Source: Actinomycetota bacterium (GTDB lineage: Bacteria > Actinomycetota > Geothermincolia > Geothermincolales > RBG-13-55-18). From it: a stretch of DNA of 64,000 bases. The number at the start of each line of letters is the position of its first letter. The stretch's first letter is position 1. The stretch spans positions 8,280 to 72,279 of the forward strand of contig QZKE01000065.1 in assembly GCA_003598015.1 (NCBI GenBank), written 5' to 3'. The notes beneath the pieces are model-generated. The model was given only the letters and a program-made list of their open reading frames with translations. It did no database searches and was not told the origin of the DNA. This document shows positions 32,340-55,188 of this stretch, piece by piece. Position numbers and translations under genes: made by a program.

Positions 32340-33404
32340 ATGCGGATGAAGATTTGCCGGGAGTGCGGCGTGCCCTACGCCGTAAGCAAGGAGCTTGTAT
32401 GGCACGAGAACGGGGTGATCACTCAGACCAGGGATCCCGATCATCGCATGATCTTCTACGAGTCGGATAACCTCGACAACCTTTTTATGGGCATAGAGGA
32501 GATAATCGGCGTGCCCATCGAGCACATCATTATCGAGAGCAAAAGGCGGGAAGTAAAGGAATACGTGGAGAGGCTTCTTCCGGCCCCCGTGCGCAAAGCC
32601 GCACGCTACGGGGGCATGGGCATGATGATACGCAAGCTGAGCAACGTGGGCAGGGCTTACGGCTACGGTAACGTGCGCATGGCCGACAGGAAGATCCGCA
32701 GGAGGAACGATGACTACGTAACCAGGGTCATCGACAACCCCCATGCGATACTCTTCTATTGCGGAGAGAACCTCGGGGCATGGGAGGCGATAGACGGGAG
32801 GGATAGCCGCGTCAGGTATGAGGAGATAACCGCGAACACCTTCGAGGTTACGAACTACATAGGAAAGCATCCCATAGAATTGCACGAACGACTGCGTACT
32901 CCCACCTATGCCCGCAAGCAAGGGGATATATTCTTCGAAAGATGCCCGTTCTGCCGCGTACCCCTTGACGTGGCATCCTGCAAGTGGAACCCGGAACTGG
33001 GGACTATTAACGACCCTTCCACCGGCAGGAGGATGGCGATATTCGGCCCCGCGGGTTTTGAGGCCGTCCTGGACGACCTGGAGGTCGAACTGGGGGCGGC
33101 CATACCCGAGACGGTTATCGAGGCTCAGAGACGCTACATCGTGAAGTCCCTGTCGCCACAGGATCTGGGCAAGGGCAAAGACGCTTTCCGCAGGATGTTC
33201 GCCTTGCGCGGCTTGGGCAACCTCGTGAACCTGGAGGTGTCGGAAGGTGGCATCTCGGCGACCATAGAGAACTCCTGCCTGCCCTTACTCATGGTGGGAG
33301 TGATGCAGGGTGCATGCGAGTCGCTGTTCGCCCACGAGAAGACGGGTTACGAGTGGGAGGCGCGGCAGGATGGCGACCTCAACATATCCATCTACAGGCG
33401 CTAG
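32340..33404 (+). CDS. Uncharacterised tandem CxxC / V4R-like domain protein, paralogue 1
   Basis: Two internal repeats start at CRECGVPYAVSKELVWHENGVI and CPFCRVPLDVASCKWNPELGTI. The C-terminus IENSCLPLLMVGVMQGACESLFAHEKTGYEWEARQDGDLNISIY resembles a V4R-type ligand-binding domain. RBS GGGGAGG. Paralogous to 40032-41102 and 54040-55188. Confidence 0.7.
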   Translation: MRMKICRECGVPYAVSKELVWHENGVITQTRDPDHRMIFYESDNLDNLFMGIEEIIGVPIEHIIIESKRREVKEYVERLLPAPVRKAARYGGMGMMIRKLSNVGRAYGYGNVRMADRKIRRRNDDYVTRVIDNPHAILFYCGENLGAWEAIDGRDSRVRYEEITANTFEVTNYIGKHPIELHERLRTPTYARKQGDIFFERCPFCRVPLDVASCKWNPELGTINDPSTGRRMAIFGPAGFEAVLDDLEVELGAAIPETVIEAQRRYIVKSLSPQDLGKGKDAFRRMFALRGLGNLVNLEVSEGGISATIENSCLPLLMVGVMQGACESLFAHEKTGYEWEARQDGDLNISIYRR

Positions 33405-33450
33405 GCGGACGTACCGGCAGTAGTAACCCGCGCCTACCCGTCGAGCAATT

Positions 33451-34971
33451 TCAATTTATGAACTGGGCTTTCAGCTCTTTTTTCAGAATCTTTCCTGTCG
33501 CCGTACGTGGCAGGGCCTCGACGAAAGCGACTTTCTTGGGTATCTTGTACTTGGCAAGCCGGCCCTTACAGAAGTCTATTACCTCCTGCTCGCTTACCTC
33601 GATTCCGGGAGCGGGAACCACGACCGCCAGCCCCACCTCTCCCCATTTTTCGTCCGGGACACCGATCACGCCGGCATCGGCGATCTTTTCGCAGGCCATG
33701 AGCACGTCTTCCACCTCGGCGGGATATACGTTTTCGCCGCCGCTGATGTACATATCCTTACGCCGATCTACAAGATAGAGATATCCTTCGTCGTCGATGT
33801 AACCCATATCGCCCGTATGCAGCCATCCGTCCGTTATGGACTCGGCTGTGGCCTCGGGAAGCTGCCAGTAGTCCCGGATAACGTTGGGACCCTTTACCCA
33901 TACCTCTCCCATCTCGCCCCGGGGCAGGTCGTTCCCTTCCACATCCATTATGCGGATATCGGTATGAAAGACGGGCTTCCCGCATGAGCCCAATTTGCGC
34001 AGGGCATCCTCGGTGCGCAGCGCGGTGATGGCGGTGGCCGTTTCGGTCATGCCGTAGCCCTGGTTAAAAGTGATGCCGTGTTTGAGCCAGGTCTCGATGA
34101 GAGGCCGTGGGCAGGGGGCGCCACCGGCGATGAAGAAGCGCACGCTGGAGTAATCGGTACTGTCGAATTCCGGCACCTGGGTCATGAGCAGAAACATCAC
34201 GGGAATACCGAACATGAAAGTTACCTTCGCTTCCTCGATGATCTTGAGCGACTCCACGGGGTTGAAAAAGCGCTGGATCACAACGCGAGCGCCCACATAT
34301 AGAGCGGGAAAAGCGGAAACGGCAAGGCCGCCTATATGAAAGAGCGGGGCACTGGCGATACTGGCGTCAGAGGAATCGAAAGCGTACATGTTTATGGAGT
34401 TGATGGCGTTCCACTGCGTGTTACCGTGGAGTATGGCCGCCCCTTTCGGTTTGCCGGTGGTGCCGGAGGTATACATAATGAACTGGACGTCGTCGAGGGT
34501 GACCTCCGCATCGGGTACCGGTTCCTCCTCCGATCGCCCGGCCACCCACTGCTCATACAGAGGATCGGAAGAATCGCCTCCTTCGAGCTCGCGGATATAC
34601 TGACGCATGGAGGGGATTTTCCCCCTGAGGGCTTCGGCGGTCTCGGCGAACTCAGGCGAGTAGATGAGCCCGATGGGGCTGGAATCGTTGAGGATATACT
34701 CCAGCTCCGGCGGCGCCAAGCGGAAATTGAGGGGAACCATTATCCCGCCGAGTTTACTCATGGCCAGGAGCACCTCCAGGAAGACATTGGTGTTGGCGAG
34801 AAGCGCCGCGAAGCGCGTTCCCTTTCTCACCCCCAACTCCTGCAGGGCATGGGCGAGGCGGTTTATCCTGGTGTTGAACTCCCCTTTGCTCAGCGAGAGG
34901 TCCCCATATTCTATATAGGGTTCGTCGGGATAGCGCGCCGCCCAGCGTGCGGGCCATTCACCTACGTTCAT
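33451..34971 (-). CDS. AMP-dependent acyl-CoA synthetase/ligase
   Basis: AMP-binding motif YTSGTTGKPKGA, plus GYGMTE, TGDMGYIDDEGYLYLVDRRKD and LPRTATGKILK. ATG 34971 is preceded by AAAGGAGG at 7 nt; the track start 35013 is less likely. Confidence 0.92.
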   Translation of the reverse strand: MNVGEWPARWAARYPDEPYIEYGDLSLSKGEFNTRINRLAHALQELGVRKGTRFAALLANTNVFLEVLLAMSKLGGIMVPLNFRLAPPELEYILNDSSPIGLIYSPEFAETAEALRGKIPSMRQYIRELEGGDSSDPLYEQWVAGRSEEEPVPDAEVTLDDVQFIMYTSGTTGKPKGAAILHGNTQWNAINSINMYAFDSSDASIASAPLFHIGGLAVSAFPALYVGARVVIQRFFNPVESLKIIEEAKVTFMFGIPVMFLLMTQVPEFDSTDYSSVRFFIAGGAPCPRPLIETWLKHGITFNQGYGMTETATAITALRTEDALRKLGSCGKPVFHTDIRIMDVEGNDLPRGEMGEVWVKGPNVIRDYWQLPEATAESITDGWLHTGDMGYIDDEGYLYLVDRRKDMYISGGENVYPAEVEDVLMACEKIADAGVIGVPDEKWGEVGLAVVVPAPGIEVSEQEVIDFCKGRLAKYKIPKKVAFVEALPRTATGKILKKELKAQFIN

Positions 34972-35118
34972 GATCGTACCTCCTTTGTGATTCGTCTGAC
35001 CGCCCGGCATCATGCAGGAAAGCTCTCTCCGGGCGGTCCGGACCGACGTTCACTGTTTCCTCGCAGCATCCCCTCCTCGAGTGAGAAACCCGACCCCAAC
35101 TCCACCATATTATCCACC

Positions 35119-35616: not shown

Positions 35617-35637
35617 GCGCCCCAAGCCTTTGCGTTA

Positions 35638-36320: not shown

Positions 36321-37085
36321 TTATGTAAACTTCTGCATGAGGTCGCCGAAGGGTAGATGGTAGTTGATGAAGGTGGGGATGGGATAACGGATGCCGCGTG
36401 CGCTCGTAGCCTCCAGCCCCTCCATTATCCTCTCCGCCCATGCCGCCGGGAAAGCGAAGATGAGCTCGTCATCATGGGTGGTAGCGAATACGCGATCCCC
36501 GTTCCCGGGCAGAGCGACCCTGGGGGTCGCACTTGCGAAGGTGCGCACAACCCCCTCGTTGCATGAACCGGCTATGCCGCCGAAATCGGCGGGCACCCTC
36601 TCGCCCGTCCAGCGGGAAGTGGCGTGCACCAGGCGCATGATCTGTGCAGGATTGCCATAGACCAGCACCAGGTGAGGCTCCACGCGCGTACGTGCAAGCG
36701 GCGACATGACGAGCTTTGGGTATGTATCGGCTTCCAGCATGGCCATACCCTGGACCCTCTTAGCGGCGGCGTCATCGTCCCTGGCGTAGTTCATGGTGAG
36801 CAGGAAAGCGGCCATGAAAGATGGACCGGTGGTCGTATCCCAGCCAAGCGCGGCATTGGCCAGGGGGCAGCTAGACTCCTCGAGTTCGAAGAGCATGGTC
36901 AGGCCCCTCTCCCTGGTGAGCGTAAGCCCCTGGCAGAGGGCGATACTGCAGCCCGTCTCCTCGCTGGGCCGGCGCGCGCGCTCCGGCGGTTCTTCTCCGC
37001 GCTGCAGGAAGCGGATGGCGACCGGGAACGTCGCCGGCCTGATGAAATCCTCGAGCCTGATCCCCAATTCCCTCCATTCCTCCAT
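36321..37085 (-). CDS. DUF169 family protein
   Basis: MEEWRELGIRLEDFIRPATFPVAIRFL...CSIALCQG...SSCPLANAALGW...GNPAQIMRLVHA...GSCNEGV matches my recollection of the DUF169 (COG2043) layout. ATG 37085 follows an AAGGAGG RBS; the track start 37148 is rejected. Confidence 0.65.
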   Translation of the reverse strand: MEEWRELGIRLEDFIRPATFPVAIRFLQRGEEPPERARRPSEETGCSIALCQGLTLTRERGLTMLFELEESSCPLANAALGWDTTTGPSFMAAFLLTMNYARDDDAAAKRVQGMAMLEADTYPKLVMSPLARTRVEPHLVLVYGNPAQIMRLVHATSRWTGERVPADFGGIAGSCNEGVVRTFASATPRVALPGNGDRVFATTHDDELIFAFPAAWAERIMEGLEATSARGIRYPIPTFINYHLPFGDLMQKFT

Positions 37086-37249
37086 GCTATCCTCCTTGCT
37101 CTCGAGCCGCCGATGGCTACCGGGCGTGTTGAGCGGGAATGTCGCCACGTGTACTTGCGGTTGGCTCGCGCCCCCGCAGAAACACTGCGCTTACCGAATA
37201 TACGCTTGCGGATCCCTGGACGGGGCTAGACGGGGGAGACCGGCGACGG

Positions 37250-39595
37250 CTATCCGGCGGAAGATCCGCCCCCGCCCCCGCCCCCTCCAGCGGATCCTCC
37301 GCCGAAACCACCTCCGCTTCCCGAACCCGAGGAACCGGGAGAGGAAGTCAAGGTATGCGAGAGATTCCCGCTCATATTGTTGAGGGCGGCCGTAAGGTAT
37401 ACGGTATTGAAAGCCATGGCAGTGCTCGAGTACCACTGGGGAGGCGTGGTGTATATTTCCTGAAACTTTCGGGCCCATGCGTCGGCGACCTCGAGCACCA
37501 TGGCATAAGGCAGGTTCTCCTGGAACCTCTCGGGAGTCATGTATTCCAACTCGGGTTTCTCGGCGGTCTCCAGGTATTCCTTGAAGCCCAACACGTATTC
37601 GTAGGCTTGCGAACCCACCTTGCTGCGCCTGGGCATCGCCCAGCCGATAACGGAAACGACTATGCCCACGGGGATGAAGGAGAGGAGCAGGACGGCAAAC
37701 CAACCGAGATCGAACCATCTCGGGAGAACGAAGGCGGTGGCCAGGGGCACTGCGGCGACGAGGATCCCCGCCGCAAGGTAGTGTTTCCGCAGGGCTTGGG
37801 GATCGCTGGTGAAAAGGCCTTTGTCCATTACCTCCTTCTTCACCCCCTTGTTCAGGATGGCGTCCACGTGGACATAGAAGGAGTTTTTCAGGTCATCCTC
37901 GCTGGCGCTATTCCCCTTTGAAAACAGGCCTTCCATGATCTCCCGTTCATAGGGCAGGAGTCCGGAAAGATCCTCGGATGTGCGCTGGAAAGCGTACTTC
38001 GTGATCCTTATGAAGCTTCTCTGCTCTTGCTCGATGATGGTGAGGTAGCCGCGACGTGCCAGGTCGACGATGGTAGCTGAGATGTCCTGTATGCGCGGCT
38101 TCTCGTTCACGAGCATCCCGACGACCGCGGGTGTCAGGCCTTGGGGGGGATCATAACGTACCATGGTGGCGCCGGTCCTCCCCACGTCGCGGCCTTTCCG
38201 CCACCATTGCAGAATCATGAGGAGGAAGACAGCGGCCAAGAGGAAGGAAGAGGAGACGATGACGGAGATACCGCAGACCCAGCCGTACTGCCAGGGTTTG
38301 CCGACCACTCCTTTGGGAAAAGCGACGTCGATGCTGAAGGTGGTGTAAGCGGGGATGTTCTTCACGCTCCACCACAGAGTATCTCCATCCCGTCCGGAAT
38401 CGTATGAGGAAGGTGGGCTATGAATATCGATATATTGCGTGGTTTCAACGGCACTCATATCCGTTCCCTCCGGGAGGCGCACGGTCACGGCGGATAACTT
38501 GATGGGAACGTCGCGCTGTACCGACGCCGTGTCCCAATAGAGACGGTCGTAATCAGCGGCGAAGATCAGATCCCCCGTCATGCGGTACTCGATGATCCAG
38601 CCGCGTTGCTCGTCCTGGGCCTGGAATTCGATATGCACCCTTTTGCCGCCTTCATAGGACTCGGCGTGCCAGAGATTTCCGTCGTATGGCTGGCCGTCAA
38701 GATCGTAAACGGCGATATCATGGATGCGTACGCGTCCGTATCTCCTGCCCTCGTCGTATAAGGGGGGTTCCGCACTCAGGTCCCGGTTGAGATAACTGAA
38801 GCTTCCGTGGAAATTGGCCACCTGTGTCTCGCGTACGGTAAAGGATGAATCGGGATTGACCTGGATATCGACGTCGAAACGTTCGAAATTCCAGCTCTTC
38901 CCGTCCGGCGTGGCAAATCCTGCCCCGGACAGATCCATGAGTGCGGCCGGCCAGTAGCAGCTGACGGAATAGGAGGATGACTCCGAGAGATAGGCGGCCT
39001 CTACGATCGCCGTATCGTTGCCGACGAATCTCTTGGTGATCTGTCCGGAATAATCGACGGTGTTGACCTCAAGATCCACGAGGGATGTGTCCACCTCCGC
39101 CGGGAAGCGTAGGGTGACTGAACTCGTGTCGATGGGCGAATCTCTCTCTGCCGGCACCGCCCCCCACTCCGGGATACCAACCCGGTCCCCGCTGACCACG
39201 AACGCACCGTTGAGCAGGTACTCATAGGTAAAGGTGGCCATTGGCCCGGCGCCGCTTACCTCGCACCAGATGGTGTATCCTTCAGCGTTCTCTTCGAAGT
39301 CCCAGCTGCTTTCCGGAAGCACGGCACCGTCGCCCCCCAGGACCCTTGCCTCTTGCAGCGTACCATAAGAGGCGGGGATGAAAAGGCCGACCCACCCCGA
39401 AGAATCCTGGAATTCGTAGGTGACTTTGTTGTGTACAAGGAGCGACCCGTCGGCATTGATGTTCAGCTCGGTGAGGAACGCACCGTAGGAATAGGACGGC
39501 TGCGCCTGTGCGGAGGTCGGACAGAGCAGGGTAAGCACGAGGGCAATGAGAAGTGCCGCCGGCATGAACAGCCTCAAACCGTGAACATAGCGCAT
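37250..39595 (-). CDS. DUF2207-like large membrane protein with Gly-rich C-terminal tail
   Basis: Signal peptide MRYVHGLRLFMPAALLIALVLTLLCPTSAQA, a large extracytoplasmic N-domain, 3-4 TM helices, and the C-terminus SSPGSSGSGSGGGFGGGSAGGGGGGGGSSAG typical of DUF2207. The track start 39643 lacks an RBS. Confidence 0.75.
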   Translation of the reverse strand: MRYVHGLRLFMPAALLIALVLTLLCPTSAQAQPSYSYGAFLTELNINADGSLLVHNKVTYEFQDSSGWVGLFIPASYGTLQEARVLGGDGAVLPESSWDFEENAEGYTIWCEVSGAGPMATFTYEYLLNGAFVVSGDRVGIPEWGAVPAERDSPIDTSSVTLRFPAEVDTSLVDLEVNTVDYSGQITKRFVGNDTAIVEAAYLSESSSYSVSCYWPAALMDLSGAGFATPDGKSWNFERFDVDIQVNPDSSFTVRETQVANFHGSFSYLNRDLSAEPPLYDEGRRYGRVRIHDIAVYDLDGQPYDGNLWHAESYEGGKRVHIEFQAQDEQRGWIIEYRMTGDLIFAADYDRLYWDTASVQRDVPIKLSAVTVRLPEGTDMSAVETTQYIDIHSPPSSYDSGRDGDTLWWSVKNIPAYTTFSIDVAFPKGVVGKPWQYGWVCGISVIVSSSFLLAAVFLLMILQWWRKGRDVGRTGATMVRYDPPQGLTPAVVGMLVNEKPRIQDISATIVDLARRGYLTIIEQEQRSFIRITKYAFQRTSEDLSGLLPYEREIMEGLFSKGNSASEDDLKNSFYVHVDAILNKGVKKEVMDKGLFTSDPQALRKHYLAAGILVAAVPLATAFVLPRWFDLGWFAVLLLSFIPVGIVVSVIGWAMPRRSKVGSQAYEYVLGFKEYLETAEKPELEYMTPERFQENLPYAMVLEVADAWARKFQEIYTTPPQWYSSTAMAFNTVYLTAALNNMSGNLSHTLTSSPGSSGSGSGGGFGGGSAGGGGGGGGSSAG

Positions 39596-39686
39596 GTCGC
39601 GTACGCCACCTTTCTTGCTTGCCCCCCTAACATGTACGGTCATCCCCGCTGTAGGGGCTCATGGTCATCTTGAGGATATCATCTTT

Positions 39687-40031: not shown

Positions 40032-41102
40032 GTGGTACAGACCCTGACCCGCTGCCGTTCCTGCGGCCTCCCGGGCAAGTTGGCGGAGCGTCTGGAATGG
40101 CGAAGCGGCGGGACCATCGTCTTCGGCCGTACGATGTCCATGCGCCTTGCGCTGCTGGATGCACAGACCATGGATAACATCCAGAGGGATCTGGCGTCCG
40201 GAGTGGGAGGCGATGCGTGTATGATGGCGGAGAAGGAAGCTACACGCATCGTGACCGGCAGTCTCCTGGCGGGTATAAAGGGCAGATTGACCCGCTACGG
40301 TGCGATCAAAAAAAGAGCGCTGGAGGACATGGAGGAGTACTCCCTGCTCCTGGGGATGGGAAGGATCGAGATGGAGAGATTCACTCCCGGTGAAGGGGGA
40401 GCCTTGAAACTGCATAAGCCGTTCGACCTGATGGTAACGGCGGCAGGTGTCACCGGCGCGCTCGAGGAGATGGACCGTTGCCGGTACCGGACCTCCATTT
40501 CCAGCCTGGGAGAGCACGACTATCGTCTTGTCTTGGAGGTTTCGGAGTCGGAGGACCCCGAGGTATCCCTGTCCGAGCCTTCTTCCTGGCACGGCAGAGG
40601 TGGAGAGAAGGTGAGGGGATGCTCTCTATGCGGACTGCCCCTGGCGTTTTCGCAATTGCTGTGGGACGAACTCTACGGCACGGTGGAAGCCGGCATTCAG
40701 GGAAGAAGAGTCGCATTCCTACCTGCCTATATGCTCTCCGTCCTGGCTCGCCTGGGAAAAGGAGAGGTTGAAGGAGGGCAGGCTGGGCTTGTGGAGAGAG
40801 CGGTATACGCATCGACCGTGAACGGCCTCGAGAGAGGGAGGGACGATGCTTACGAGAGCACCGCCATCGTGCCCAGGAATGGCAATGCCCGGATCGCCTG
40901 GGGAAGCATGGCCATGAGGGGTTGGGGGGAGGTAGTCGGGGGAGCTCTACGGGGGAGAGAATGGCGGATCGATGTGCTCGATCCGGTGGACATGGGTCTT
41001 GTCGCCGGTTGGCTACGCGCCCTGTATACACTAGCTACGGGAGAAGATACCGCGACAAGGATCGAAGAAGGACGGGAGTCAACCACGTTCAGTCTGGGAT
41101 GA
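40032..41102 (+). CDS. Uncharacterised tandem CxxC / V4R-like domain protein, paralogue 2
   Basis: GTG start 5 nt after AAGGAG. Repeats start at CRSCGLPGKLAERLEWRSGGTI and CSLCGLPLAFSQLLWDELYGTV. The C-terminus is DPVDMGLVAGWLRALYTLATGEDTATRIEEGRESTTFSL. 356 aa. Confidence 0.7.
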   Translation: MVQTLTRCRSCGLPGKLAERLEWRSGGTIVFGRTMSMRLALLDAQTMDNIQRDLASGVGGDACMMAEKEATRIVTGSLLAGIKGRLTRYGAIKKRALEDMEEYSLLLGMGRIEMERFTPGEGGALKLHKPFDLMVTAAGVTGALEEMDRCRYRTSISSLGEHDYRLVLEVSESEDPEVSLSEPSSWHGRGGEKVRGCSLCGLPLAFSQLLWDELYGTVEAGIQGRRVAFLPAYMLSVLARLGKGEVEGGQAGLVERAVYASTVNGLERGRDDAYESTAIVPRNGNARIAWGSMAMRGWGEVVGGALRGREWRIDVLDPVDMGLVAGWLRALYTLATGEDTATRIEEGRESTTFSLG

Positions 41103-41103
41103 A

Positions 41104-41128
41104 GCCGTGCCTCACATATAGGCACGGC
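41104..41128 (+). terminator. Stem-loop after paralogue 2 (possible terminator or processing site)
   Basis: GCCGTGCCT-cacatat-AGGCACGGC perfect 9-bp stem directly after the stop. No U-tract. Confidence 0.3.
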
Positions 41129-41170
41129 CATATGCATGGCAGGTGTTGGAGCTGCTGAAAAAGGAGGTCG

Positions 41171-41947
41171 ATGCAGTTGTATAAGGAACAGTTCTCCCTG
41201 GAAGGAAAGGTGGCCATCGTGACCGGCGGCAGCAGGGGGATAGGCCAGGCCATAGCGGAGGGCTACGCCGAGATGGGTGCCAAGGTGGTTCTGGCCAGCC
41301 GCAAGGCCGAGGCATTGGAGGAAGTACGCAAGGGCATCGAGGCCGCCGGGGGAGAGGCTTGCGTCATCCCCACCCACATGGGGGACATGGAGGGCATAGG
41401 GCGCCTTGTCCAGGGCACCCTGGACAAGTACGGCACCATTGACATACTGGTCAACAACGCAGCGACCAACCCCATTTTCTGCGGTACAGGTGACGTGGAG
41501 GAGCCCGCCTTCGAGAAGATAATGGAGGTGAATGTCAAGGGCCTCTTCTTCCTCACCCAGCAGGTGGGGAAGGTGATGTGCGACAAGGGCTCCGGGTCCG
41601 TGGTCAACGTCTCCTCTGAGGCCGCCTTCTGCCCTACGCCCTTTCTAGGGGTGTACTCGATATCCAAGGCTGCGGTGAACATGCTCACCAAGGTCTTCGC
41701 GCAGGAGTGGGGGCCCAAGGGAGTCCGTGTGAACGGTATTGCCCCCGGACTGGTTAAAACCCATTTCAGCCAGGCGTTGTGGGGTAACGAAGCCATACTC
41801 CAGGCCGCACTGGCCTCTATCCCCCTGGGGAGGATGGCGGAGCCCGAGGAGATGGTGGGGCTGGCCATCTTCCTGGCCTGCAATGCCTCCCAGTACCTGA
41901 CTGGACAGGTCGTGCTCATCGATGGAGGAAGAGAGATCTCGGCCTGA
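41171..41947 (+). CDS. Short-chain dehydrogenase/reductase (FabG / 3-hydroxyacyl-CoA dehydrogenase-like)
   Basis: TGGSRGIG cofactor motif, NNAA, and the catalytic S...YSISKAAV pattern. RBS AAAGGAGG. Confidence 0.9.
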   Translation: MQLYKEQFSLEGKVAIVTGGSRGIGQAIAEGYAEMGAKVVLASRKAEALEEVRKGIEAAGGEACVIPTHMGDMEGIGRLVQGTLDKYGTIDILVNNAATNPIFCGTGDVEEPAFEKIMEVNVKGLFFLTQQVGKVMCDKGSGSVVNVSSEAAFCPTPFLGVYSISKAAVNMLTKVFAQEWGPKGVRVNGIAPGLVKTHFSQALWGNEAILQAALASIPLGRMAEPEEMVGLAIFLACNASQYLTGQVVLIDGGREISA

Positions 41948-41982
41948 TTCCTCGCTGGCACGGCATAGAAAAAGGTGAGCGG

Positions 41983-46188: not shown

Positions 46189-46231
46189 GACCTACGAATA
46201 TCCTGACCGGTTCATACAGGGGGTGATCCAG

Positions 46232-47464: not shown

Positions 47465-47588
47465 AGATCGATAGTATGTATCGCGTAAGCGATAGCGCCG
47501 TCTTCGGCGCGACGGTGTCCAGGCCTTCAACTTTCTCAAGATGAAGGCCTGGCACGTGTACGTCACCCAAGAGTGTAGAGGAGAGCAC

Positions 47589-48305
47589 ATGACGGCTGTA
47601 CCCATAGCCTTTTTCGACCTGGACCATACGCTGCTCGACGGAGCCAACGGCAACCTGGTGGTGAAGTACATGGTCAAGACCCGGCGCATGGGCGTGGACG
47701 CGATATGGAAGGCGATAAAGTTCACGGTGCTATACCGCATGAACCGCCTGCCCAGAGAGGAGGTCTACCGCTGGACCTTCCAGGAATGTGGTAAGTACAG
47801 CATGCACGAGTTAATCGAGATGCTCGATGAATCCTACGCGCAGTACGTCATGCCGCGCCTCTATAAGGAAGGCGCCGATTGTGTAGCCGAACATAAAGAA
47901 AAGGGGCATCACACGGTCATAGCCACTGCCGCAGGGGAATATATGTCCGAGAAGGTGAGGGTGCAGCTGGGTGCGGACGACAAGATAGCGGCCGTCGCCC
48001 CCGTCCGCAACGGCCGGCTCACGGACGAGCTGGAGATGCCACTGCCCTACGGCGAAGGAAAGAAGGTGCTCGCTCAGCGCTATGCGGAGAGCAGGGGAGT
48101 CACGCTCGAGGACTGCTGGTTCTATTCAGACTCCCTGGCCGACACCCCCCTGCTGGATGCGGTGGGACACCCCGTGGCGGTAAACCCGCAGCGGGCCGTA
48201 AAGCGCATCGCCTTCGAGCGGGGATGGCCGGTGCTGACCTGGCATACACCGGCCGGTTTCACCACCCCCAGTATCGCCGTCGACCTCTCTTTCGAGCTGG
48301 CGTGA
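47589..48305 (+). CDS. HAD-IB family hydrolase (phosphoserine-phosphatase-like)
   Basis: MTAVPIAFFDLDHTLL (DxDxT), TAAGEYM, GEGK, YSDSLADTPLL. The track start 47541 is an alternative. Confidence 0.85.
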   Translation: MTAVPIAFFDLDHTLLDGANGNLVVKYMVKTRRMGVDAIWKAIKFTVLYRMNRLPREEVYRWTFQECGKYSMHELIEMLDESYAQYVMPRLYKEGADCVAEHKEKGHHTVIATAAGEYMSEKVRVQLGADDKIAAVAPVRNGRLTDELEMPLPYGEGKKVLAQRYAESRGVTLEDCWFYSDSLADTPLLDAVGHPVAVNPQRAVKRIAFERGWPVLTWHTPAGFTTPSIAVDLSFELA

Positions 48306-48311
48306 CGCGCC

Positions 48312-48575
48312 ATGCCAGACAATTCGGGCTTGACGCGTATGGTCGATGGAAATATAAAGATATTGCACGTCCTGGGAGGGAACGAGCACTGGAGGCTGCC
48401 CATGGTGACGCCCGCTAGATCATCCTCGAAAAACTCGCTACCTGTAATCGCCTGCCTGTGCCTGGGGGCATGTCTGGGAGCGGCATGGGCCATGCACCTT
48501 GACGAAGAGCAACAGAGGCGGATCAAGAAGAACCTGTTCGAGCTGCGGGAGATGCCGTTCCGCATCTTCATATAA
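48312..48575 (+). CDS. Small hypothetical membrane protein
   Basis: 87 aa with one TM-like segment (LPVIACLCLGACLGAAWAM) and an amphipathic tail. Sits between two co-directional genes with 6- and 12-nt gaps. No clear RBS. Confidence 0.35.
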   Translation: MPDNSGLTRMVDGNIKILHVLGGNEHWRLPMVTPARSSSKNSLPVIACLCLGACLGAAWAMHLDEEQQRRIKKNLFELREMPFRIFI

Positions 48576-48587
48576 GGGGTTGTGGGA

Positions 48588-50135
48588 ATGGACTACGACT
48601 ACGATGTGATCATCATCGGCGCGGGCATGGGCGGCCTGACCGCAGCTACCCTGCTGGCCAAGGAGGGATTGAAGGTCCTGGTGCTCGAGAGGCTGGAGAG
48701 AGTGGGCGGATGCTGCTCAAACTACGACGTCGGCGGCTTCAAGCCCGAGGTGGGAGCTGTCTTCGTCATCGCCCACGAGTTCTATTACAAGCTGTTCGAG
48801 CTGCTCGACCTGCGGCTGGAGGATTACTTGGACTGGAGCCTCATAGATCCCGTCTACCAGGTTTACCTCGAGGACGGTAGCGATGTAGCGCTGCCACGGG
48901 ACGTCGATGAGATGGCAAAAGTCGTCAAAGAACTGGCCCCCCAGGATGTCGACGGATACTACCGCTACTGCAAGGACCTGGGTAAGCTCCACAAGGCTTT
49001 GACCGCCTTCACCGCCAACCCCATGCCGGAGATCAGGAAACTGACCAAGTTGTCCAGCCTGGCAAAATTGTTCGGCAGCAAGGACTTCATCCCCGCCTTG
49101 CCCATCAACCTCAAACTCGCCCTGAACAACCTCGAGAAGTGCGTCAAGAGTTATTTCGACGATCCCGTGGTGCAGCTCATGTTCGGTTGGGAGAACATAT
49201 ACTCCGGGCTGCCGGCACACCGCTGTTTCGGCATGTTCGCGATGATTACCTACATGGGACACTTGGGGTATTATTACCCCAAGGGCGGGATGATCTCCAT
49301 CCCCAAGGCACTGACGCGTATCGCCCAGGACTTCGGCGCGGAGTTGCGACTGGAGGCCGAGGTGGACAGCATCGTTCTCGAAGGCCGTGAGGCCAGGGGA
49401 GTGAAGCTGGCAAACGGAGAGATATTCAGCGCACGTGCCGTGATATCCAACACCCACACGCGCTTCACCTACCTCAACCTCCTCCGGGATGCCAACCTGC
49501 CCGGGTGGGTGGCCCGCACCGTGCGCCGCCAGCCCTGCTCCATACCCGCTCCCATGTTTTACATGGGGCTCTCAGAGCCGCTGGACAGTGTAAAGTCCCA
49601 CATGTCCCTGGTGGCCCAATCAAGAAAACACCTGGATGACGTGTGGAAGGATTTCTACGACCGCGGGCTGCTATGCCGCGCTGCGGATGGGATGTACCTG
49701 CTGATCTGCCCCACCTTCGACGACCCGGAACTGGCCCCTCCCGGCAAGCAGGTTATCTCGGCCATGTACATCGCGCCCTACCGGCTCAAGTATCACGATT
49801 GGGATGATATCGCGGAGGAATGGACCTGGGAGTGTATAGATTACCTCGACAAAAGGTGTTTCCCCGGCCTCGTTCAGCGCGTGGAATGGATGGACCCCGT
49901 ACCTCCCACCGAGCTCGAGCGGCGGCTCAACGTCGCCGAGGGCGCTTTCTTCGGGATCGAGATGAGCCTGCCCAACTCAGGGCCCTTCCGCCCCAATTAC
50001 CGTTCCCACTTCATCGACCGGCTCTATCAGGCCGGTCAATGCACCAATCCCGGCCTGGGGGTGCCGGGGGCGATGATCTCGGGTATGGCGGTGGCCAGCC
50101 TTATGCTCAACGATTGGCCGAAGAAGCTCGCCTAG
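48588..50135 (+). CDS. Phytoene-desaturase-family FAD-dependent oxidoreductase (CrtI-like)
   Basis: DYDVIIIGAGMGGLTAATLLAKEGLKVLVLERLERVGGC dinucleotide fold and a C-terminal CrtI-like GQCTNPGLGVPGAMISG. GTG 48582 is an alternative start. Confidence 0.88.
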   Translation: MDYDYDVIIIGAGMGGLTAATLLAKEGLKVLVLERLERVGGCCSNYDVGGFKPEVGAVFVIAHEFYYKLFELLDLRLEDYLDWSLIDPVYQVYLEDGSDVALPRDVDEMAKVVKELAPQDVDGYYRYCKDLGKLHKALTAFTANPMPEIRKLTKLSSLAKLFGSKDFIPALPINLKLALNNLEKCVKSYFDDPVVQLMFGWENIYSGLPAHRCFGMFAMITYMGHLGYYYPKGGMISIPKALTRIAQDFGAELRLEAEVDSIVLEGREARGVKLANGEIFSARAVISNTHTRFTYLNLLRDANLPGWVARTVRRQPCSIPAPMFYMGLSEPLDSVKSHMSLVAQSRKHLDDVWKDFYDRGLLCRAADGMYLLICPTFDDPELAPPGKQVISAMYIAPYRLKYHDWDDIAEEWTWECIDYLDKRCFPGLVQRVEWMDPVPPTELERRLNVAEGAFFGIEMSLPNSGPFRPNYRSHFIDRLYQAGQCTNPGLGVPGAMISGMAVASLMLNDWPKKLA

Positions 50136-50430
50136 GGGGGGTTGTAGCCCGGTCCCGGGGCAGGCGGTCCTCGTTCCGTGTTATATTCCGGCCCGAGCCT
50201 TGGGGTAATGGCCTCGCTCGGCGCGCAATAGGCGGGATAGGAGGAAGAGACCTCATCTTCATTTGCGCGCGCAGCTGCGACCAACCCATTACTCCTCCGT
50301 GCAGCGGTTATAATGCAGGCTATGCCCGGGCGCGGTCTTTCTGTTACTCACGGATTGATACACCTGGTTCATTATCCTTCGCGATCGGATTCACGTTTTA
50401 TGGGGATTGCGCGATCAAGAGACGGGATAT

Positions 50431-50459
50431 TTGACAGGTGGGCAGGCTGATACTATTGT
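50431..50459 (+). promoter_or_regulatory. Candidate sigma-70-type promoter giving a leaderless tetR transcript
   Basis: TTGACA (50431-50436), 17-nt spacer, TATTGT (50454-50459). The ATG at 50466 is 7 nt after the -10 element, and no RBS is present. Confidence 0.45.
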
Positions 50460-50465
50460 AATGAC

Positions 50466-51131
50466 ATGTCAGTACCAAAAAAACGGATGCCCGCTCGTGA
50501 GCGGCGTGAGCATATACTCGAAGCCTCAGCCGCAGTTTTCTCGCGCAAGGGGTACCGCATGGCCTCGGTCTCGGATATAGTTGAGGAGGCCGGTATTGGG
50601 AGAGGTACCTTTTATCTCTACTTCGATTCCAAGAGAGAGATTTTCCTCGAGCTCATAGAGGCCTTTTTCCGCGGCTATGCCGAGCTGCTCGAGGAGAATC
50701 ACCGCAGGCTGGAGGAGGCCTTCAGGCGACGAAGCAGGGTACTGAGGACCTGGAGGGAAAACATGCTGAGGGTCCTCGAGTACCATCAAGAGAACCCATA
50801 CCTTACCAACATCGCCTACCGTGAGGCCCTCGGAAAGGACGAGGACTTCTCGGCAAGGGTCGGCGAGCTGTCGAGCCTGGCGCGCGAGAAACTGGTCGAC
50901 GAATTCCGCATGATGTACGACCGGGGCATGATGCGCGAATGCGATGTTGAGCTGGTGACTTCCGTGGTAATGGGGTCAACGGTCTACGTGGTCATGGAGC
51001 ACCTGCTGCCGGAGAACGAGGTGGACGTGGAGAGCCTTGCGGACATGATAGTCGAATACCACATCCGGGCACTTATACCGGAGGTGGGAGACGTAAAAAG
51101 GGCGCTGCACAGCGCCATAGAGACAGGATGA
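50466..51131 (+). CDS. TetR/AcrR family transcriptional regulator
   Basis: N-terminal HTH ILEASAAVFSRKGYRMASVSDIVEEAGIGRGTFYLYFDSKREIF. 221 aa. Confidence 0.92.
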   Translation: MSVPKKRMPARERREHILEASAAVFSRKGYRMASVSDIVEEAGIGRGTFYLYFDSKREIFLELIEAFFRGYAELLEENHRRLEEAFRRRSRVLRTWRENMLRVLEYHQENPYLTNIAYREALGKDEDFSARVGELSSLAREKLVDEFRMMYDRGMMRECDVELVTSVVMGSTVYVVMEHLLPENEVDVESLADMIVEYHIRALIPEVGDVKRALHSAIETG

Positions 51132-51337
51132 CCCGAGGGGTCAGACCCGCGTAATCGCCGGTGCGTTCAACGCAGGGGAGAAATGGTTGGAGGAACGCCC
51201 GGCAGGATAGAAGGACAGGATTTGTGGACAGAGCGTGAGCTTTGGCCGTATGACGGAAAGGAGGGTCGAAGCAGGATTGTACTAACAGCTGTATCCCATT
51301 GCATGCGTTCCATTACTAGGAATAAGGGGTGAAGCGT

Positions 51338-52447
51338 ATGGTTTCGTTTGAGTTGAGCGACGAACAGAAAATGGTCCAGGAGACTGTCGCCTCCTTCGCT
51401 GCCGATCAGATAGAGCCGGTCATGCGGGAGAGTGACGAGCAAAACACCATTCCCGAGGAAGTCATCGCCAAGGGGTGGGAGTTGGGTCTCCTGGGAGGGT
51501 GCATCCCGGAGGAATACGAGGGTTTCGGAGAGGAGCTCTCTTCGCTTACCGGACTGATCGCATTGGAGGAGCTGGCTTGGGGGGATCTCTCCATAGGTCT
51601 CCATCTCATGGCCCCCTCGGTTCTCGCCATCTCCGTACTCGACCAGGGAACGGAGGAACAGAAGAAACAACTGCTGCCGACGTTCTGCGAGGAGGAGTAC
51701 AAGGCGGCGTCGAGCGCCCTCGTCGAGCCCTACTACAACTTCTGCGCGTCGGCGCTGCGGACTTCGGCGGCGTGCGAGGGTGAAGAGTACGTCATTAACG
51801 GAGAAAAGTGCCTGGTGCCGCTGGCCCAGGAATCCGAGAACATGCTGGTTTTCGCGGCGAGCAATCCCGGGATGGGATTCTCCGGTGTAGATGCCTTCGT
51901 CATCCCCGTAGCTACCAAGGGAGTAAGCGTAGGGGAGCGCGAGAAAAATATGGGTATCAAAGCCCTTTCCACTTATCCTGTTTCCTTCAAGGACTGCCGC
52001 GTATCCGTGAGCGCCCGCATCGGGGAAGAGGCAGGGTGCAATTTTCTCAGGTTGCTGTCGCGTTCGCGCCTGGCCCTGGCTGCTCTGGCGGTGGGTATGA
52101 GCCGCAGGGCGCTGGAGCACTCCCGCGATTATGCCACACAGAGGATAGCCTTCGGCGAGCCCATCGGCTCGCGCCAGGCCATTGCCTTCATGATCGCGGA
52201 GATGGCCATAGAGATCGATGCCGCAAGATTACTAGCCTGGGAGGCCGCATGGCGCTGCGACCGTGCCATGGATTTCGAGAAGGAGGCCTCGCTGGCCAAG
52301 AACTACGCGGCGGACATGGCCATGATGGTATGCGACCGCGGGGTGCAGATCATGGGCGGCCACGGCTACGTCAGGGACAATCCCGTTGAGCTTTGGTTCC
52401 GTAACTCGCGCGGGTTCGCAGCCTTCGAAGGCTTTGTGATGGTATAG
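51338..52447 (+). CDS. Acyl-CoA dehydrogenase family protein (short C-terminus)
   Basis: MVSFELSDEQKMVQETVASFAADQI...GHGYVRDNPVELWFRNSRGFAAFEGFVMV. It ends only 4 residues after the FEG catalytic-base position. ATG 51338 follows AAGGGG; GTG 51329 is an alternative. Confidence 0.88.
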   Translation: MVSFELSDEQKMVQETVASFAADQIEPVMRESDEQNTIPEEVIAKGWELGLLGGCIPEEYEGFGEELSSLTGLIALEELAWGDLSIGLHLMAPSVLAISVLDQGTEEQKKQLLPTFCEEEYKAASSALVEPYYNFCASALRTSAACEGEEYVINGEKCLVPLAQESENMLVFAASNPGMGFSGVDAFVIPVATKGVSVGEREKNMGIKALSTYPVSFKDCRVSVSARIGEEAGCNFLRLLSRSRLALAALAVGMSRRALEHSRDYATQRIAFGEPIGSRQAIAFMIAEMAIEIDAARLLAWEAAWRCDRAMDFEKEASLAKNYAADMAMMVCDRGVQIMGGHGYVRDNPVELWFRNSRGFAAFEGFVMV

Positions 52448-52459
52448 GGAGGTGGAAAA

Positions 52460-53716
52460 ATGATAGATTTTGAACTCTCTCCGCGTATCAAGGGCACCAA
52501 GAACATGATCCATATGTTCGCGGAAAGCGCAGTGCGCCCCATCGCCCGGCAGTTCGACGAGGAGGAACACGAGAAGCCCTGGGATCTCCTGAAAATGGTA
52601 CAGAAAGTAATGGGCGGCGGCATCGCCGGAGCTTTAGGCAGCCCGGAGAAGAAGGAGAAGAAGGAGGAGGGCGAGGAGAAGAAGGAGAAGAAGCCCCGCG
52701 AGACCAACCTGGCGGGAGCGATCACCGTCGAGGAGATCTTCTGGGGGGACGCTGGCATCGCGCTGGCCTTCCCCGGCCCCGGCCTGGGGGGAGCGGCGGT
52801 TCAGGCCAGCGGAACCCCCGAACAGAAGGAAAAGTTTCTGGCCCGCTTCGCCGGCGAGGAGCCATCCTGGGGCGCCATGGCCATCACCGAACCCGAGGCG
52901 GGCTCGGACACCGCCAACCTCAAGACCAGCGCGGTGCTGGACGGGGACGAATGGGTGCTCAACGGTGAGAAGATTTTCGTCACCTCCGGGAAGAGCGCGC
53001 TGGAGGATTCCGATGGCTTCGTGGTGGTCTGGGCTACCATAGACAAGCAGGCGGGAAGGGCCGGCATCAAACCCTTCATCGTCGAGCACGACACCCCGGG
53101 CATGGAGATAACTAAGATCGAGGATAAGATGGGCATCCGTTGCTCGGACACGGTATCCATCTCCTTCATGGACTGCCGCATCCCCAAGGAGAACATCCTG
53201 GGCAGCCCGGAGGTGGTGGACAAGACCAAGACCGAGGGCTTCAAGAAGGTCATGGCGACCTTCGACGCCACCCGTCCCCTGGTTGCCGCGATGGCTATCG
53301 GTGTGGGCCAGGCTTCACTCGACTTCCTGAAGCAGAAACTTGCGGAGGAGGGAATTGAGCTGCGCTACGGCATCAACCCCCACCGCATGTCCTCTCTCGA
53401 GAGGGATGTCATGCAGATGGAGGCCGACCTCAAGGCAGCGCGGTTACTCACCTGGAGGGCGCTGTGGATGCTGGACAACGGCCTGCGCAACGATCTGCAG
53501 TCATCCATGGCCAAGGCGAAGGCGGGACTCGCGGTCACCCGCATTACCCAGAAAGCGGTGGAGTTGATGGGACCGCTGGGCTATTCCAGGGAACTGCTGC
53601 TGGAGAAGTGGATGAGGGACTCCAAGATAAACGATATCTTCGAGGGAACCGGCCAGATCCAGCTGTTGATAACCGCCAGGCGTATCCTCGGCTTCACACG
53701 AGAACAGTTGAAATAA
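52460..53716 (+). CDS. Acyl-CoA dehydrogenase family protein with Lys/Glu-rich insertion
   Basis: ACAD layout (ITEPEAGSD, GEKIFVTSG, GPLGYSRELLLEKWMRDSKINDIFEGTGQIQ) plus an inserted GSPEKKEKKEEGEEKKEKKPRETN segment near residue 60. Confidence 0.9.
   Translation: MIDFELSPRIKGTKNMIHMFAESAVRPIARQFDEEEHEKPWDLLKMVQKVMGGGIAGALGSPEKKEKKEEGEEKKEKKPRETNLAGAITVEEIFWGDAGIALAFPGPGLGGAAVQASGTPEQKEKFLARFAGEEPSWGAMAITEPEAGSDTANLKTSAVLDGDEWVLNGEKIFVTSGKSALEDSDGFVVVWATIDKQAGRAGIKPFIVEHDTPGMEITKIEDKMGIRCSDTVSISFMDCRIPKENILGSPEVVDKTKTEGFKKVMATFDATRPLVAAMAIGVGQASLDFLKQKLAEEGIELRYGINPHRMSSLERDVMQMEADLKAARLLTWRALWMLDNGLRNDLQSSMAKAKAGLAVTRITQKAVELMGPLGYSRELLLEKWMRDSKINDIFEGTGQIQLLITARRILGFTREQLK
52646..52693 (+). 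repeat. Direct 18-nt repeat GAGAAGAAGGAGAAGAAG x2 inside ACAD gene (encodes EKKEKK)
   Basis: Identical copies at 52646-52663 and 52676-52693, separated by 12 nt, in frame. Confidence 0.8.
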
Positions 53717-53729
53717 TCGCCAGTGTGGA

Positions 53730-53753
53730 GAGGGGGGCGGAAACGCCCCCCTC
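53730..53753 (+). terminator. GC-rich hairpin after the ACAD pair
   Basis: GAGGGGGGCG-gaaa-CGCCCCCCTC perfect 10-bp stem with a GNRA-like loop, 14 nt after the stop. Weak U-tract (GTTCTAT). Confidence 0.45.
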
Positions 53754-54039
53754 GTTCTATATGTGGTCGTCACGGTAAAGGCCCCAGGGGGAGCGATTGC
53801 CGGGCAAAGGGGTTGATCCTGGGATTATGCAGGAGATCGCCGATATTTTGACTATCCTTGAGCGAACATCATGGAGAAGAACCTGATAGAATATTCTCGC
53901 AAACAGGTAAATTACGGAAGCGACACAAATGCGGGGAACAGGGATAAGTAATGTTGCCGGATACCCCGATCAGATCACGACGGGGCCAGGCTTTTCGTCA
54001 GCGGGAAAGGGAGAGGCGCGACTATTCCGGGATGAGGTT

Positions 54040-55188
54040 ATGAACCAGCAAGAAGGTACCGGCAAGAGATCATACGCCGATCGTGCGCCCAGGAAGAGAT
54101 GGGTCAGAAGCAAGGGACTGTCGGTCTTCAGCCCCTTGCTCCGCGTATGCAAGGAATGCGGTGTGCCGCTGGCTATTTCGCAGGACCACGCCTGGGAAGA
54201 GCACGGGCGGATCCTGAGCCGGGATACCTCCCAGAGGCTGGTCATTGTAGAGAGGAAGATAATCAACGGTATCCTCGAGAAGATCACCGCTAAACTGGGC
54301 AGGGAATACGAGAAGACCTTCATCCACGCGAAGGCCTTCGACGCCAGCCAATACGTGCGCTCCGTAATGGTGGGATGGCGCAAGGTCGCGGCGGGTTATC
54401 CCCTCGTGAGGCGCCCCTTTTACGAGCTTCTCTGCGACCGCGCCCGCATACTCGGAATGGCGGACGCCAATGTGGCGCATTACCAGCGGGGCAAAGAGGT
54501 GATCATCACCTGTACCCAGTGTTATAACAAGACCTTCTTTGCCGGTGACATACTGGGCGCGGTATATGCGGGCGAGAAAAGGGAGGCGACGATAGATATC
54601 GACGATAGCGACGGGGAGATCATTTATACGGTTACCGTACTGGATAACGAGAGGTTTGAGGCCATCGAAAAATACTCCTTCTCGTGGGAAGTGCCCCTAC
54701 CCGGCTATATTAGCTACAAGCGGTGCAAGAAGTGTGGCGTCCCCTTCTCGGTCAGCTTCTTCTCCTGGGACATCTCCCGGGGGCTGATGGTCGACACGCA
54801 TAACGGCGAGCCGGTGGCCCTTATCGACGTAGCTGGCATAAATGCCGCATATGCTGAGATAAAAGCCAGAAGCGGGAATTGGGTGGACGATTTCCTTGCC
54901 GTTGAGATCAAGGATATGGTGGATGGCATCCTACCCGGCCTGGAGTGGAAAAGGCGCCGGCCCGAAGAGAAGATCCGCGACCTTTTCTTTCTGGCGTACA
55001 GAGGCATGGGAAACCCCGTGTTCACCGAACCGACCGATGATGGGATAAGGGCCAGGATAGAGAACCCTTTCAACTATCCCATAGTAGCCGGAATAGCGGC
55101 TTCGTTCCTGGCGCGCGACAAGCCGGCGGCCTTCGACTGGGAGAGGGTGATGCCAGGCAGGTTGGAGCTTAACCTGCATTTCCTGTGA
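54040..55188 (+). CDS. Uncharacterised tandem CxxC / V4R-like domain protein, paralogue 3
   Basis: Repeats start at CKECGVPLAISQDHAWEEHGRI and CKKCGVPFSVSFFSWDISRGLM. The C-terminus is IENPFNYPIVAGIAASFLARDKPAAFDWERVMPGRLELNL. ATG 54040 is preferred; the track start 53929 is an alternative. Confidence 0.7.
   Translation: MNQQEGTGKRSYADRAPRKRWVRSKGLSVFSPLLRVCKECGVPLAISQDHAWEEHGRILSRDTSQRLVIVERKIINGILEKITAKLGREYEKTFIHAKAFDASQYVRSVMVGWRKVAAGYPLVRRPFYELLCDRARILGMADANVAHYQRGKEVIITCTQCYNKTFFAGDILGAVYAGEKREATIDIDDSDGEIIYTVTVLDNERFEAIEKYSFSWEVPLPGYISYKRCKKCGVPFSVSFFSWDISRGLMVDTHNGEPVALIDVAGINAAYAEIKARSGNWVDDFLAVEIKDMVDGILPGLEWKRRRPEEKIRDLFFLAYRGMGNPVFTEPTDDGIRARIENPFNYPIVAGIAASFLARDKPAAFDWERVMPGRLELNLHFL

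Follow-up and report, generated by a model that had tools for sequence, protein, structure and literature searches.

The DNA analysed here, referred to as the window, is a stretch of 64,000 nucleotides (positions 8,280 to 72,279 of contig QZKE01000065.1) from an Actinomycetota bacterium of the Geothermincolia. Three genes for paralogous, internally duplicated proteins of an uncharacterised family were found in it and named P1, P2 and P3:

32340..33404, + strand: P1, 354 aa (RJP30373.1), two tandem halves, residues 1-~187 and ~188-354
40032..41102, + strand: P2, 356 aa, GTG start with an AAGGAG ribosome-binding site, at the head of a cluster of a short-chain dehydrogenase/reductase (SDR) and an old yellow enzyme (OYE) type gene
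54040..55188, + strand: P3, 382 aa (RJP30388.1), architecture as in P1 and P2

The source of both accessions is a metagenome-assembled genome (MAG) labelled 'Actinobacteria bacterium'. Translations of the three open reading frames (ORFs), with P2 read from its GTG, were identical to those quoted in an earlier sequence-only reading of this DNA, and the start codons chosen there were backed by Shine-Dalgarno sequences and orthologue lengths: P2 orthologues of about 358 aa cover 100% of the GTG-started P2, and P3 orthologues are mostly 382 aa long. The JGI gene call for P2 (322 aa, P0348) starts too late, by which the first CxxC is lost, and two family members (among P0076, P0109 and P0348) were misnamed 'ribosomal protein S14' by JGI via their zinc-knuckle similarity. 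Isoelectric points (pI) were calculated at 6.4 for P1, 5.6 for P2 and 8.5 for P3. The grand average of hydropathy (GRAVY) lies between −0.16 and −0.35 and no membrane segments are present in the three proteins. P3 carries an N-terminal extension (residues 1-18) which is basic, rich in Lys and Arg, and disordered in the structural model.

Pairwise BLASTP aligned P1 with P3 at an E-value of 2e-26, with 24% identity and colinear over the full length, P1 with P2 at 6e-12 and P2 with P3 at 4e-10, P2 being the most divergent of the three. To compare the two halves, 63 aligned sequences of the P1 clade, whose members are 35-80% identical to P1, were cut at residue 188. The N-half and C-half profiles matched in hhalign with a probability of 98.8% and an E-value of 6e-17 over 153 columns, with the CxxC-GVP-W-G motif, the helices after this motif and the IENP/IENS strand in register, and cross-half BLAST matches between the paralogues agree with this. 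P1, P2 and P3 are true paralogues, each internally duplicated; both properties had been read from the translations before and were borne out by these comparisons. Since the full-length alignments of the three proteins are colinear, the duplication is older than the split into three subfamilies.

All six frames of the window were scanned with the pattern C..C[GR][VLIA]P.{6,8}W.{2,4}G.[IVM]. Exactly the six sites proposed earlier were recovered, two per protein, and no others:

32355..32420, + strand: N-half knuckle of P1, CRECGVPYAVSKELVWHENGVI, containing C6 and C9, both invariant in the family
32943..33008, + strand: C-half knuckle of P1, CPFCRVPLDVASCKWNPELGTI, containing C202 and C205, both invariant in the family
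40053..40118, + strand: N-half knuckle of P2, CRSCGLPGKLAERLEWRSGGTI
40620..40685, + strand: C-half knuckle of P2, CSLCGLPLAFSQLLWDELYGTV
54148..54213, + strand: N-half knuckle of P3, CKECGVPLAISQDHAWEEHGRI
54724..54789, + strand: C-half knuckle of P3, CKKCGVPFSVSFFSWDISRGLM

Conservation was counted over the 386 members that reach 330 aa or more, aligned to a hidden Markov model (HMM) of the family and numbered as in P1. All four cysteines (C6, C9, C202 and C205) were present in 370 members; in the remaining 16 the gene call is cut short at the N-terminus, so that not a single Cys substitution was observed. Two CxxC knuckles with four invariant cysteines are the pattern of a zinc ribbon or rubredoxin-like pair. 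Besides the cysteines, columns with at least 85% conservation were limited to P12/P208, W21/W216, several glycines, R36, R290 and N311, the last three being the only other polar residues conserved throughout the family. With so few conserved columns, there is no family-wide set of catalytic residues, no fifth metal ligand and no H-NOX haem motif. When 56 members were scanned against Pfam at E ≤ 10, only zinc-knuckle families were matched, all below threshold: zf-Mss51 in 45, zf_C2H2_13 in 40, DZR_2 in 17 and zf-ChsH2 in nine members. The P3 clade has three extra conserved cysteines in the N-half, C132, C158 and C161 (window 54433-54522). The spacing of 26 residues between C132 and C158 equals that of C155 and C181 in MopR, where these two and C189 make up the structural zinc site of the phenol sensor (PMC9556785), and the three extra cysteines have no conserved equivalent across the family; by this analogy, the three residues may form a second, intradomain metal site in the P3 clade.

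The family is uncharacterised and undescribed, as the sequence-only reading had stated. No Pfam or NCBIfam model matched P1, P2 or P3, the names given in databases are all 'hypothetical', and no description of the family was found in literature searches. Searches of the PDB by sequence, with the single proteins and with the family profile, matched no chain. The Pfam model V4R gave no match to P1-P3 at E ≤ 1, and V4R, XylR_N, HNOB and TRAPP were absent from the 56 members at E ≤ 10.

Structural models were made for P1 with AlphaFold2 from a 65-sequence alignment (predicted local distance difference test, pLDDT, 90.8; predicted template modelling score, pTM, 0.89) and for P3 with AlphaFold from an independent alignment (pLDDT 88.5, pTM 0.87). 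In both models, each half consists of a knuckle, a short helix, three strands, three long helices and a beta-beta-alpha-beta-beta unit, an order of elements that, as assigned by DSSP, agrees with the V4R/H-NOX/Bet3 fold class. Foldseek comparison of the P1 model with the PDB returned the DmpR-phenol complex 6iy8 first (E 9e-4). The phenol-sensor domain of PoxR (5frz_A) was matched with a target template modelling (TM) score of 0.55 over 174 columns of its 194 residues, TRAPP TPC6/Bet3 with 0.55, YslB with 0.50 and dozens of H-NOX domains with target-normalised scores of 0.38-0.45 at a probability of 0.95-1.0. For the P3 model, PoxR came first (5fru_A, TM 0.56, 198 columns), and H-NOX, YslB, TPC6 and BcsD were among the further matches. 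For both models pooled, TM ranged from 0.53 to 0.55 for TPC6 and from 0.46 to 0.50 for YslB, at a probability of about 1.0, and each match covers about one half of the query. In P1, each half is thus predicted to be a CxxC knuckle with a V4R/H-NOX-like domain, and from the two models the family modules can be placed, rightly at the level of the fold, in the V4R/H-NOX/Bet3 class of ligand sensors. The earlier description of the proteins as V4R-like therefore stands for the fold, where two models support it, and lacks support in the sequence, where the V4R model matched none of the 56 members. The statement that no catalytic, nucleotide-binding or DNA-binding motif is visible agreed with the Pfam scan and the survey of conserved columns.

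Best matched in structure was the A domain of XylR, DmpR, PoxR and MopR (XylR_N plus V4R; 5frz, 5fru, 6iy8 and 5kbe), at a TM of about 0.55 over nearly the whole sensor domain. The likeness extends to the module size of about 190 residues; XylR-type domains bind small hydrophobic or aromatic ligands and work as dimers in which a structural zinc is held by cysteines (PMC9556785). The sensor domain of MopR has a nitric-oxide-signalling fold, resembles the fatty-acid-binding TRAPP proteins and dimerises with a structural zinc site (PMC9556785). In contrast to these domains, the family shows no detectable sequence similarity to them, its 'dimer' is one duplicated chain and its invariant cysteines lie in the N-terminal knuckle, not at the positions of C155, C181 and C189 of MopR. 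Moreover, family proteins of 350-380 aa consist of two modules only, without an AAA+ sigma54-interaction domain or a helix-turn-helix.

Stand-alone V4R proteins (COG1719, 'predicted hydrocarbon-binding protein'; BchJ-type) are likewise small, presumed binders of hydrophobic ligands acting in trans (PMC2253512), and share the beta-beta-alpha-beta-beta C-terminal subdomain, a resemblance already pointed out in the sequence-only reading; the tandem duplication and the CxxC knuckles belong to the new family and not to V4R. V4R domains, found both on their own and in fusions, are believed to be binders of hydrophobic ligands that signal in cis or in trans, and were proposed as the ancestor of Bet3 (PMC2253512). 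H-NOX (HNOB) proteins match in fold and are stand-alone sensors that signal in trans to the products of neighbouring genes. Unlike these, the family lacks a haem motif of the YxSxR type, and the root-mean-square deviation of the superposition is high. A haem sensor of the H-NOX type was rejected, as no His, Tyr or Ser column reached 85% and HNOB gave no match.

The TRAPP subunits Bet3 and TPC6 and the bacterial YslB (DUF2507) share the fold class (TM 0.50-0.55), and subunits of the Bet3 family pair as dimers or pseudo-dimers. The pocket of Bet3, which lies between the sheet and the helices behind it, encloses a buried fatty-acyl chain (PMC13254051). Bet3 and TPC6 differ from the family in being part of a eukaryotic complex and in lacking a knuckle or Cys4 site, and show no sequence similarity to it. 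The plant carotenoid isomerase D27 and its D27-like relatives, reported to be related to H-NOX and TRAPP, are of this fold class and have a hydrophobic pocket together with four cysteines and a metal cofactor (PMC13254051). In D27, C199, C211, C215 and C242 line the cavity of a single domain, whereas the family has two plus two cysteines in two N-terminal knuckles, and the invariant Cys 6, 9, 202 and 205 lie outside the alpha/beta cavity region. D27 was absent from the top Foldseek matches in the PDB, among which there is no solved D27 structure.

The family is small: when 1.84 billion representative proteins were searched exhaustively with its HMM, only 536 matched at E ≤ 1e-3, nearly all of about 350 aa. 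In a collection of 185,579 species, all 29 loci belonged to Actinomycetota MAGs, assigned to Candidatus Geothermincola, Candidatus Solincola, Anoxymicrobiaceae and Geothermincolales, with one labelled Acidimicrobium. The family has been found so far only in Actinomycetota of the Geothermincolia type. Single MAGs supply three or more loci, and in L004, L018, L020, L023 and L025 an HMM scan revealed two to four paralogues arranged in tandem. Coordinates of such arrays are L025:5540-10705, L023:4949-8761, L018:6381-12401 and L004:10001-12208, and several adjoin a gene for an EamA transporter.

The neighbourhood of the three genes in the window contains the following features, among them acyl-CoA dehydrogenases (ACAD):

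33451..35013, - strand: long-chain fatty-acid-CoA ligase family gene, convergent with P1 (Pfam AMP-binding; NCBIfam NF004837 above cut-off)
41171-41947, + strand: SDR, conserved downstream partner of P2 orthologues (Pfam, synteny)
41983-43929, + strand: flavoenzyme with OYE and pyridine-nucleotide-disulphide reductase domains (Pfam, synteny)
50466-51131, + strand: TetR regulator, upstream of P3 in most P3 loci (Pfam)
51329-52447, + strand: ACAD, upstream of P3 in most P3 loci (Pfam)
52460-53716, + strand: second ACAD (ACAD2), upstream of P3 in most P3 loci (Pfam)
53730..53753, + strand: GC-rich, terminator-like hairpin of 10 pairs, 9 of them G-C, 14 nt past the ACAD2 stop
55212..55604, - strand: acidic ORF of 130 aa (pI 4.6), convergent with P3 and 23 nt from its stop, without a Pfam match

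For the ligase (AMP-binding) next to P1 and for the SDR and OYE/Pyr_redox genes after P2, Pfam confirmed the identities given in the sequence-only reading.

For P2, 33 relatives were found. In all four orthologue contexts (the window, L041, L042 and L043; 37-100% identity), P2 is followed, after a gap of 68-78 nt, by the SDR gene and then by OYE/Pyr_redox, Macro, low-molecular-weight phosphatase and enoyl-CoA hydratase (ECH) genes, while the upstream contexts are of three different kinds. In an alignment of the P2-SDR intergenic region, the ribosome-binding site alone was conserved and no other shared elements were present. This pattern is compatible with co-transcription, and of the three subfamilies P2 alone looks operon-like. 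The closest NCBIfam models of the OYE enzyme, all below threshold, are BaiCD, mycofactocin-OYE and bilirubin reductase.

The genes from P2 through P3 form a supercluster across Geothermincolia MAGs (window 40032-55188; L039, L041-L043 and L045). Its order is P2, SDR, OYE (BaiCD-like), Macro domain, low-molecular-weight phosphatase, ECH, zinc-dependent alcohol dehydrogenase, HAD, CrtI-family desaturase, TetR, ACAD, ACAD and P3. The desaturase, named 'amine oxidase' at first, was assigned by NCBIfam, and the presence of a macro domain and a low-molecular-weight phosphatase within a cluster for CoA esters is unusual.

For P3, about 78 relatives were found and the neighbourhoods of 21 loci were mapped by tblastn. 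Of about 18 informative loci, 17 have an orthologue of ACAD2 upstream of P3. The two ACADs are generic, with AcrC and cyclohexanecarbonyl-CoA dehydrogenase as their best NCBIfam matches. The hairpin past ACAD2 in the window has a fold energy of −36.5 kcal/mol (z −3.1), and hairpins at the same position were found in L039, L045-L048 and L052-L061, separated from P3 by a gap of 190-970 nt. Scans of the window for promoter and terminator consensus sequences gave no enrichment over shuffled sequences. Given the conserved hairpin and the gap, P3 is most likely a transcription unit of its own. The link between P3 and the ACADs is therefore probably positional and not transcriptional, the hairpin resembling an intrinsic terminator that would insulate TetR-ACAD-ACAD from P3. 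As to the proposal that P3 ends a TetR-ACAD-ACAD unit, the order and identity of the genes were correct (Pfam), whereas P3 is set apart by the hairpin in 15 of 16 loci. Exceptions are L040, the most distant P3 relative (40% identity), where the ACAD abuts with a gap of 6-10 nt, and L038, where P3 occurs without any ACAD. The acidic ORF of 130 aa was kept downstream of P3 in 19 of the 21 loci (tblastn). An ORF of 161 aa on the + strand (55185-55670) was rejected as a partner gene of P3, the conserved minus-strand ORF that it overlaps being preferred; it is probably not a gene.

The P1 clade comprises 33 non-redundant loci, and an orthologue of the ligase adjoined a P1 relative in none of them. 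When neighbours of P1-clade members were clustered all against all, no family occurred in more than 7 of 38 loci. Pfam counts for the 123 ORFs within two genes of P1-clade members were led by EamA with five, followed by MFS, PAS and UvrD with four each; acyl-CoA families were absent from the top 25, and no recurrent redox neighbour, adjacent kinase or cyclase was found. A conserved partner gene for the P1 clade was rejected on these two results. In a close relative (L041:1-3430, corresponding to window 30011-35013), MFS, ORF179 and the ligase are present with no P1 between them, and P1 is thus an insertion/deletion polymorphism at this site. The Solincola loci L001, L010 and L011 contain P1 and SDR-OYE genes, with the ligase and P2 absent. 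In the window, the upstream gaps of P1 and P3 measure 320-340 nt and both genes look monocistronic. The suggestion that each paralogue is attached to an acyl-CoA module fails as a property of the family, since the P1 clade has no recurrent neighbour and no adjacent ligase. A dedicated accessory role in acyl-CoA metabolism finds support in the P2 subfamily, given its SDR-OYE neighbours, weakly also in P3, given its ACADs, and none in the P1 clade.

Taken together, the family may consist of non-catalytic, pseudo-dimeric sensors or carriers of hydrophobic ligands, stapled by a Cys4 site and acting in trans, which is the best-supported interpretation and has about an even chance of being correct. 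Each protein is a single chain of two homologous modules, a covalent pseudo-dimer in which every module measures about 175 aa and is built from a CxxC[GR][VL]P knuckle of the rubredoxin/zinc-ribbon type with a small beta-sheet, a helical subdomain and a beta-beta-alpha-beta-beta subdomain. A tetrahedral site requires four ligands, and a single knuckle is all that each half supplies; both knuckles would therefore share a single metal ion at the pseudo-dyad, most likely a structural zinc, in a Cys4 site that would lock the halves together much as in the homodimers of XylR-type sensor domains. In the interior of each half there would be a pocket for a small molecule of hydrophobic character, whether acyl, aromatic or isoprenoid, and the paralogues would have diverged in the residues of this pocket and so in their ligand. 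Since an output or catalytic domain is lacking, the proteins would act in trans, by binding the ligand or by handing it over to partner proteins. The P2 type would work with the cluster of SDR and OYE-type enoate/dienoyl reductase that it heads, the P3 type would be coupled to TetR-ACAD-ACAD by position and not by transcription, and the P1 type would have no fixed partner. Among the three types, a genuine functional link is most plausible for P2, to its cluster of SDR and OYE-type reductase.

This interpretation fits the fold, the absence of conserved catalytic residues and of an output domain, and the behaviour of stand-alone V4R and H-NOX proteins. It also fits the dimeric, zinc-containing sensor domain of the XylR type and the expansion of paralogues in varied contexts. 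The lineage-specific expansion, the tandem arrays and the unrelated gene contexts fit a diversified family of binders or sensors better than a single dedicated pathway accessory.

Several points weigh against it. What is shown directly is paralogy, duplication, fold class, invariance of the four cysteines, taxonomic restriction and gene-context statistics; every functional claim, from the metal site common to both knuckles to the binding of a ligand and activity in trans, is inferred. The Foldseek E-values are marginal (1e-3 to 1e-2), and the similarity to V4R and H-NOX exists at the fold level only, with no support from sequence profiles in the single-protein, family-profile and 56-member searches. 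Whole helices are very strongly conserved in the P1 clade, for example PDHRMxFYESDNLD and IEHIVIESKRRE, which exceeds the needs of a ligand pocket and makes catalysis or an obligate protein partner possible. SDR-OYE clusters occur without P2 in the three Solincola loci, and the terminator-like hairpin that separates P3 from the ACADs lies directly past the ACAD2 stop in 15 of 16 loci, with its position kept, its sequence not, and often a T-run added. Finally, the sampled genomes are all related, and the synteny of P2 and P3 may partly reflect phylogenetic inertia.

The four cysteines could also bind iron where the two halves meet, as a rubredoxin-like Fe(Cys)4 centre or an Fe-S cluster, which would make the proteins electron-transfer partners or redox-gated sensors for neighbouring flavoenzymes (ACAD, OYE-type) or single-electron isomerases of hydrophobic substrates like D27. 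The knuckles are of the CxxCG rubredoxin type, the family profile weakly touches rubrerythrin (E 0.07), and the zf-ChsH2 family matched below threshold in nine of the 56 members is a 'rubredoxin-like zinc ribbon'. The hosts are anaerobes, P2 and P3 have flavoenzymes as neighbours, and some relatives adjoin flavodoxin and Fer4 genes (L005). D27 itself has a fold like H-NOX and TRAPP with a 4Fe-4S cluster and isomerises a hydrophobic substrate (PMC13254051); the cysteines of its cluster, however, are found inside the ligand cavity of the core domain, in contrast to the N-terminal position of the knuckles in each half of the family proteins. No further conserved residues point to a catalytic pocket, and the P1 clade lacks a recurrent redox neighbour. 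Pairs of CxxC knuckles are, moreover, far more often structural zinc sites. A redox or Fe-S protein is unlikely. More specifically, stand-alone redox- or gas-gated sensors of hydrophobic ligands, or D27-like isomerases, with an Fe or Fe-S centre at the pseudo-dyad and serving flavin-dependent CoA-ester enzymes, are quite unlikely; if true, they would represent a previously unrecognised class of proteins in anaerobic Actinomycetota.

Quite improbable, too, is a ligand-responsive regulator without a classical helix-turn-helix, in which the V4R-like domains would sense a metabolite and the knuckles, together with the basic tail of P3, would bind nucleic acid to control nearby operons. V4R-type domains typically serve transcription regulators as sensors (PMC2253512, PMC9556785), the genes for P1 and P3, with their long upstream gaps, seem to be monocistronic, a terminator precedes P3, and both the location of the genes at the borders of metabolic clusters and their expansion are regulator-like. 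The basic pI and Lys/Arg-rich tail of P3 would suit this role, but P1 and P2 are acidic and the tail is missing from P3 relatives at or below 55% identity. DNA-binding families were matched neither by P1-P3 (Pfam and NCBIfam) nor by the 56 members (Pfam), a TetR regulator already accompanies the ACAD unit, and two single knuckles sharing one metal would leave little surface for the recognition of DNA.

The least probable alternative is a structural subunit or scaffold comparable to BcsD or to Bet3 of TRAPP, a pseudo-dimeric adaptor by which enzyme complexes would be assembled or anchored to the membrane, with no small-molecule ligand of its own: Foldseek matches to TRAPP Bet3/TPC6 heterodimers and BcsD, the strong conservation of helices over their full length in the P1 clade, which is surface-like and suggests a protein-protein interface, and tandem arrays that could encode hetero-oligomers are consistent with it, but the P1 clade has no constant partner gene, the top structural matches are ligand sensors and not scaffolds, and the GRAVY values and lack of membrane segments of P1-P3 argue against it.

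The family brings a new architecture to the V4R/H-NOX/Bet3 superfamily, in which a knuckle with a sensor fold is present twice in a single chain and four cysteines are never replaced, a natural covalent counterpart of the sensor-domain dimer of XylR-type regulators. The fold and the probable mode of action are of kinds already known. In the uncultured class Geothermincolia, few families are both expanded and specific to the lineage, and this is one of them; knowledge of its ligands would aid the interpretation of the conserved SDR/OYE/ECH/ACAD cluster in these anaerobes of the subsurface. The pseudo-dimeric binders might also serve as scaffolds for biosensors, as MopR already does. Their practical importance is moderate and current knowledge is not overturned.

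Two further genes are located between P1 and P2, both on the - strand: a DUF169 gene (COG2043, 36321-37148) and a gene for a large DUF2207 membrane protein (37250-39643). The latter is syntenic with P1 or P2 in L001, L010, L011 and L041. The sole RNA gene identified in the window with Rfam and ARAGORN was a tRNA-Leu (GAG) at 27586-27673 on the + strand.

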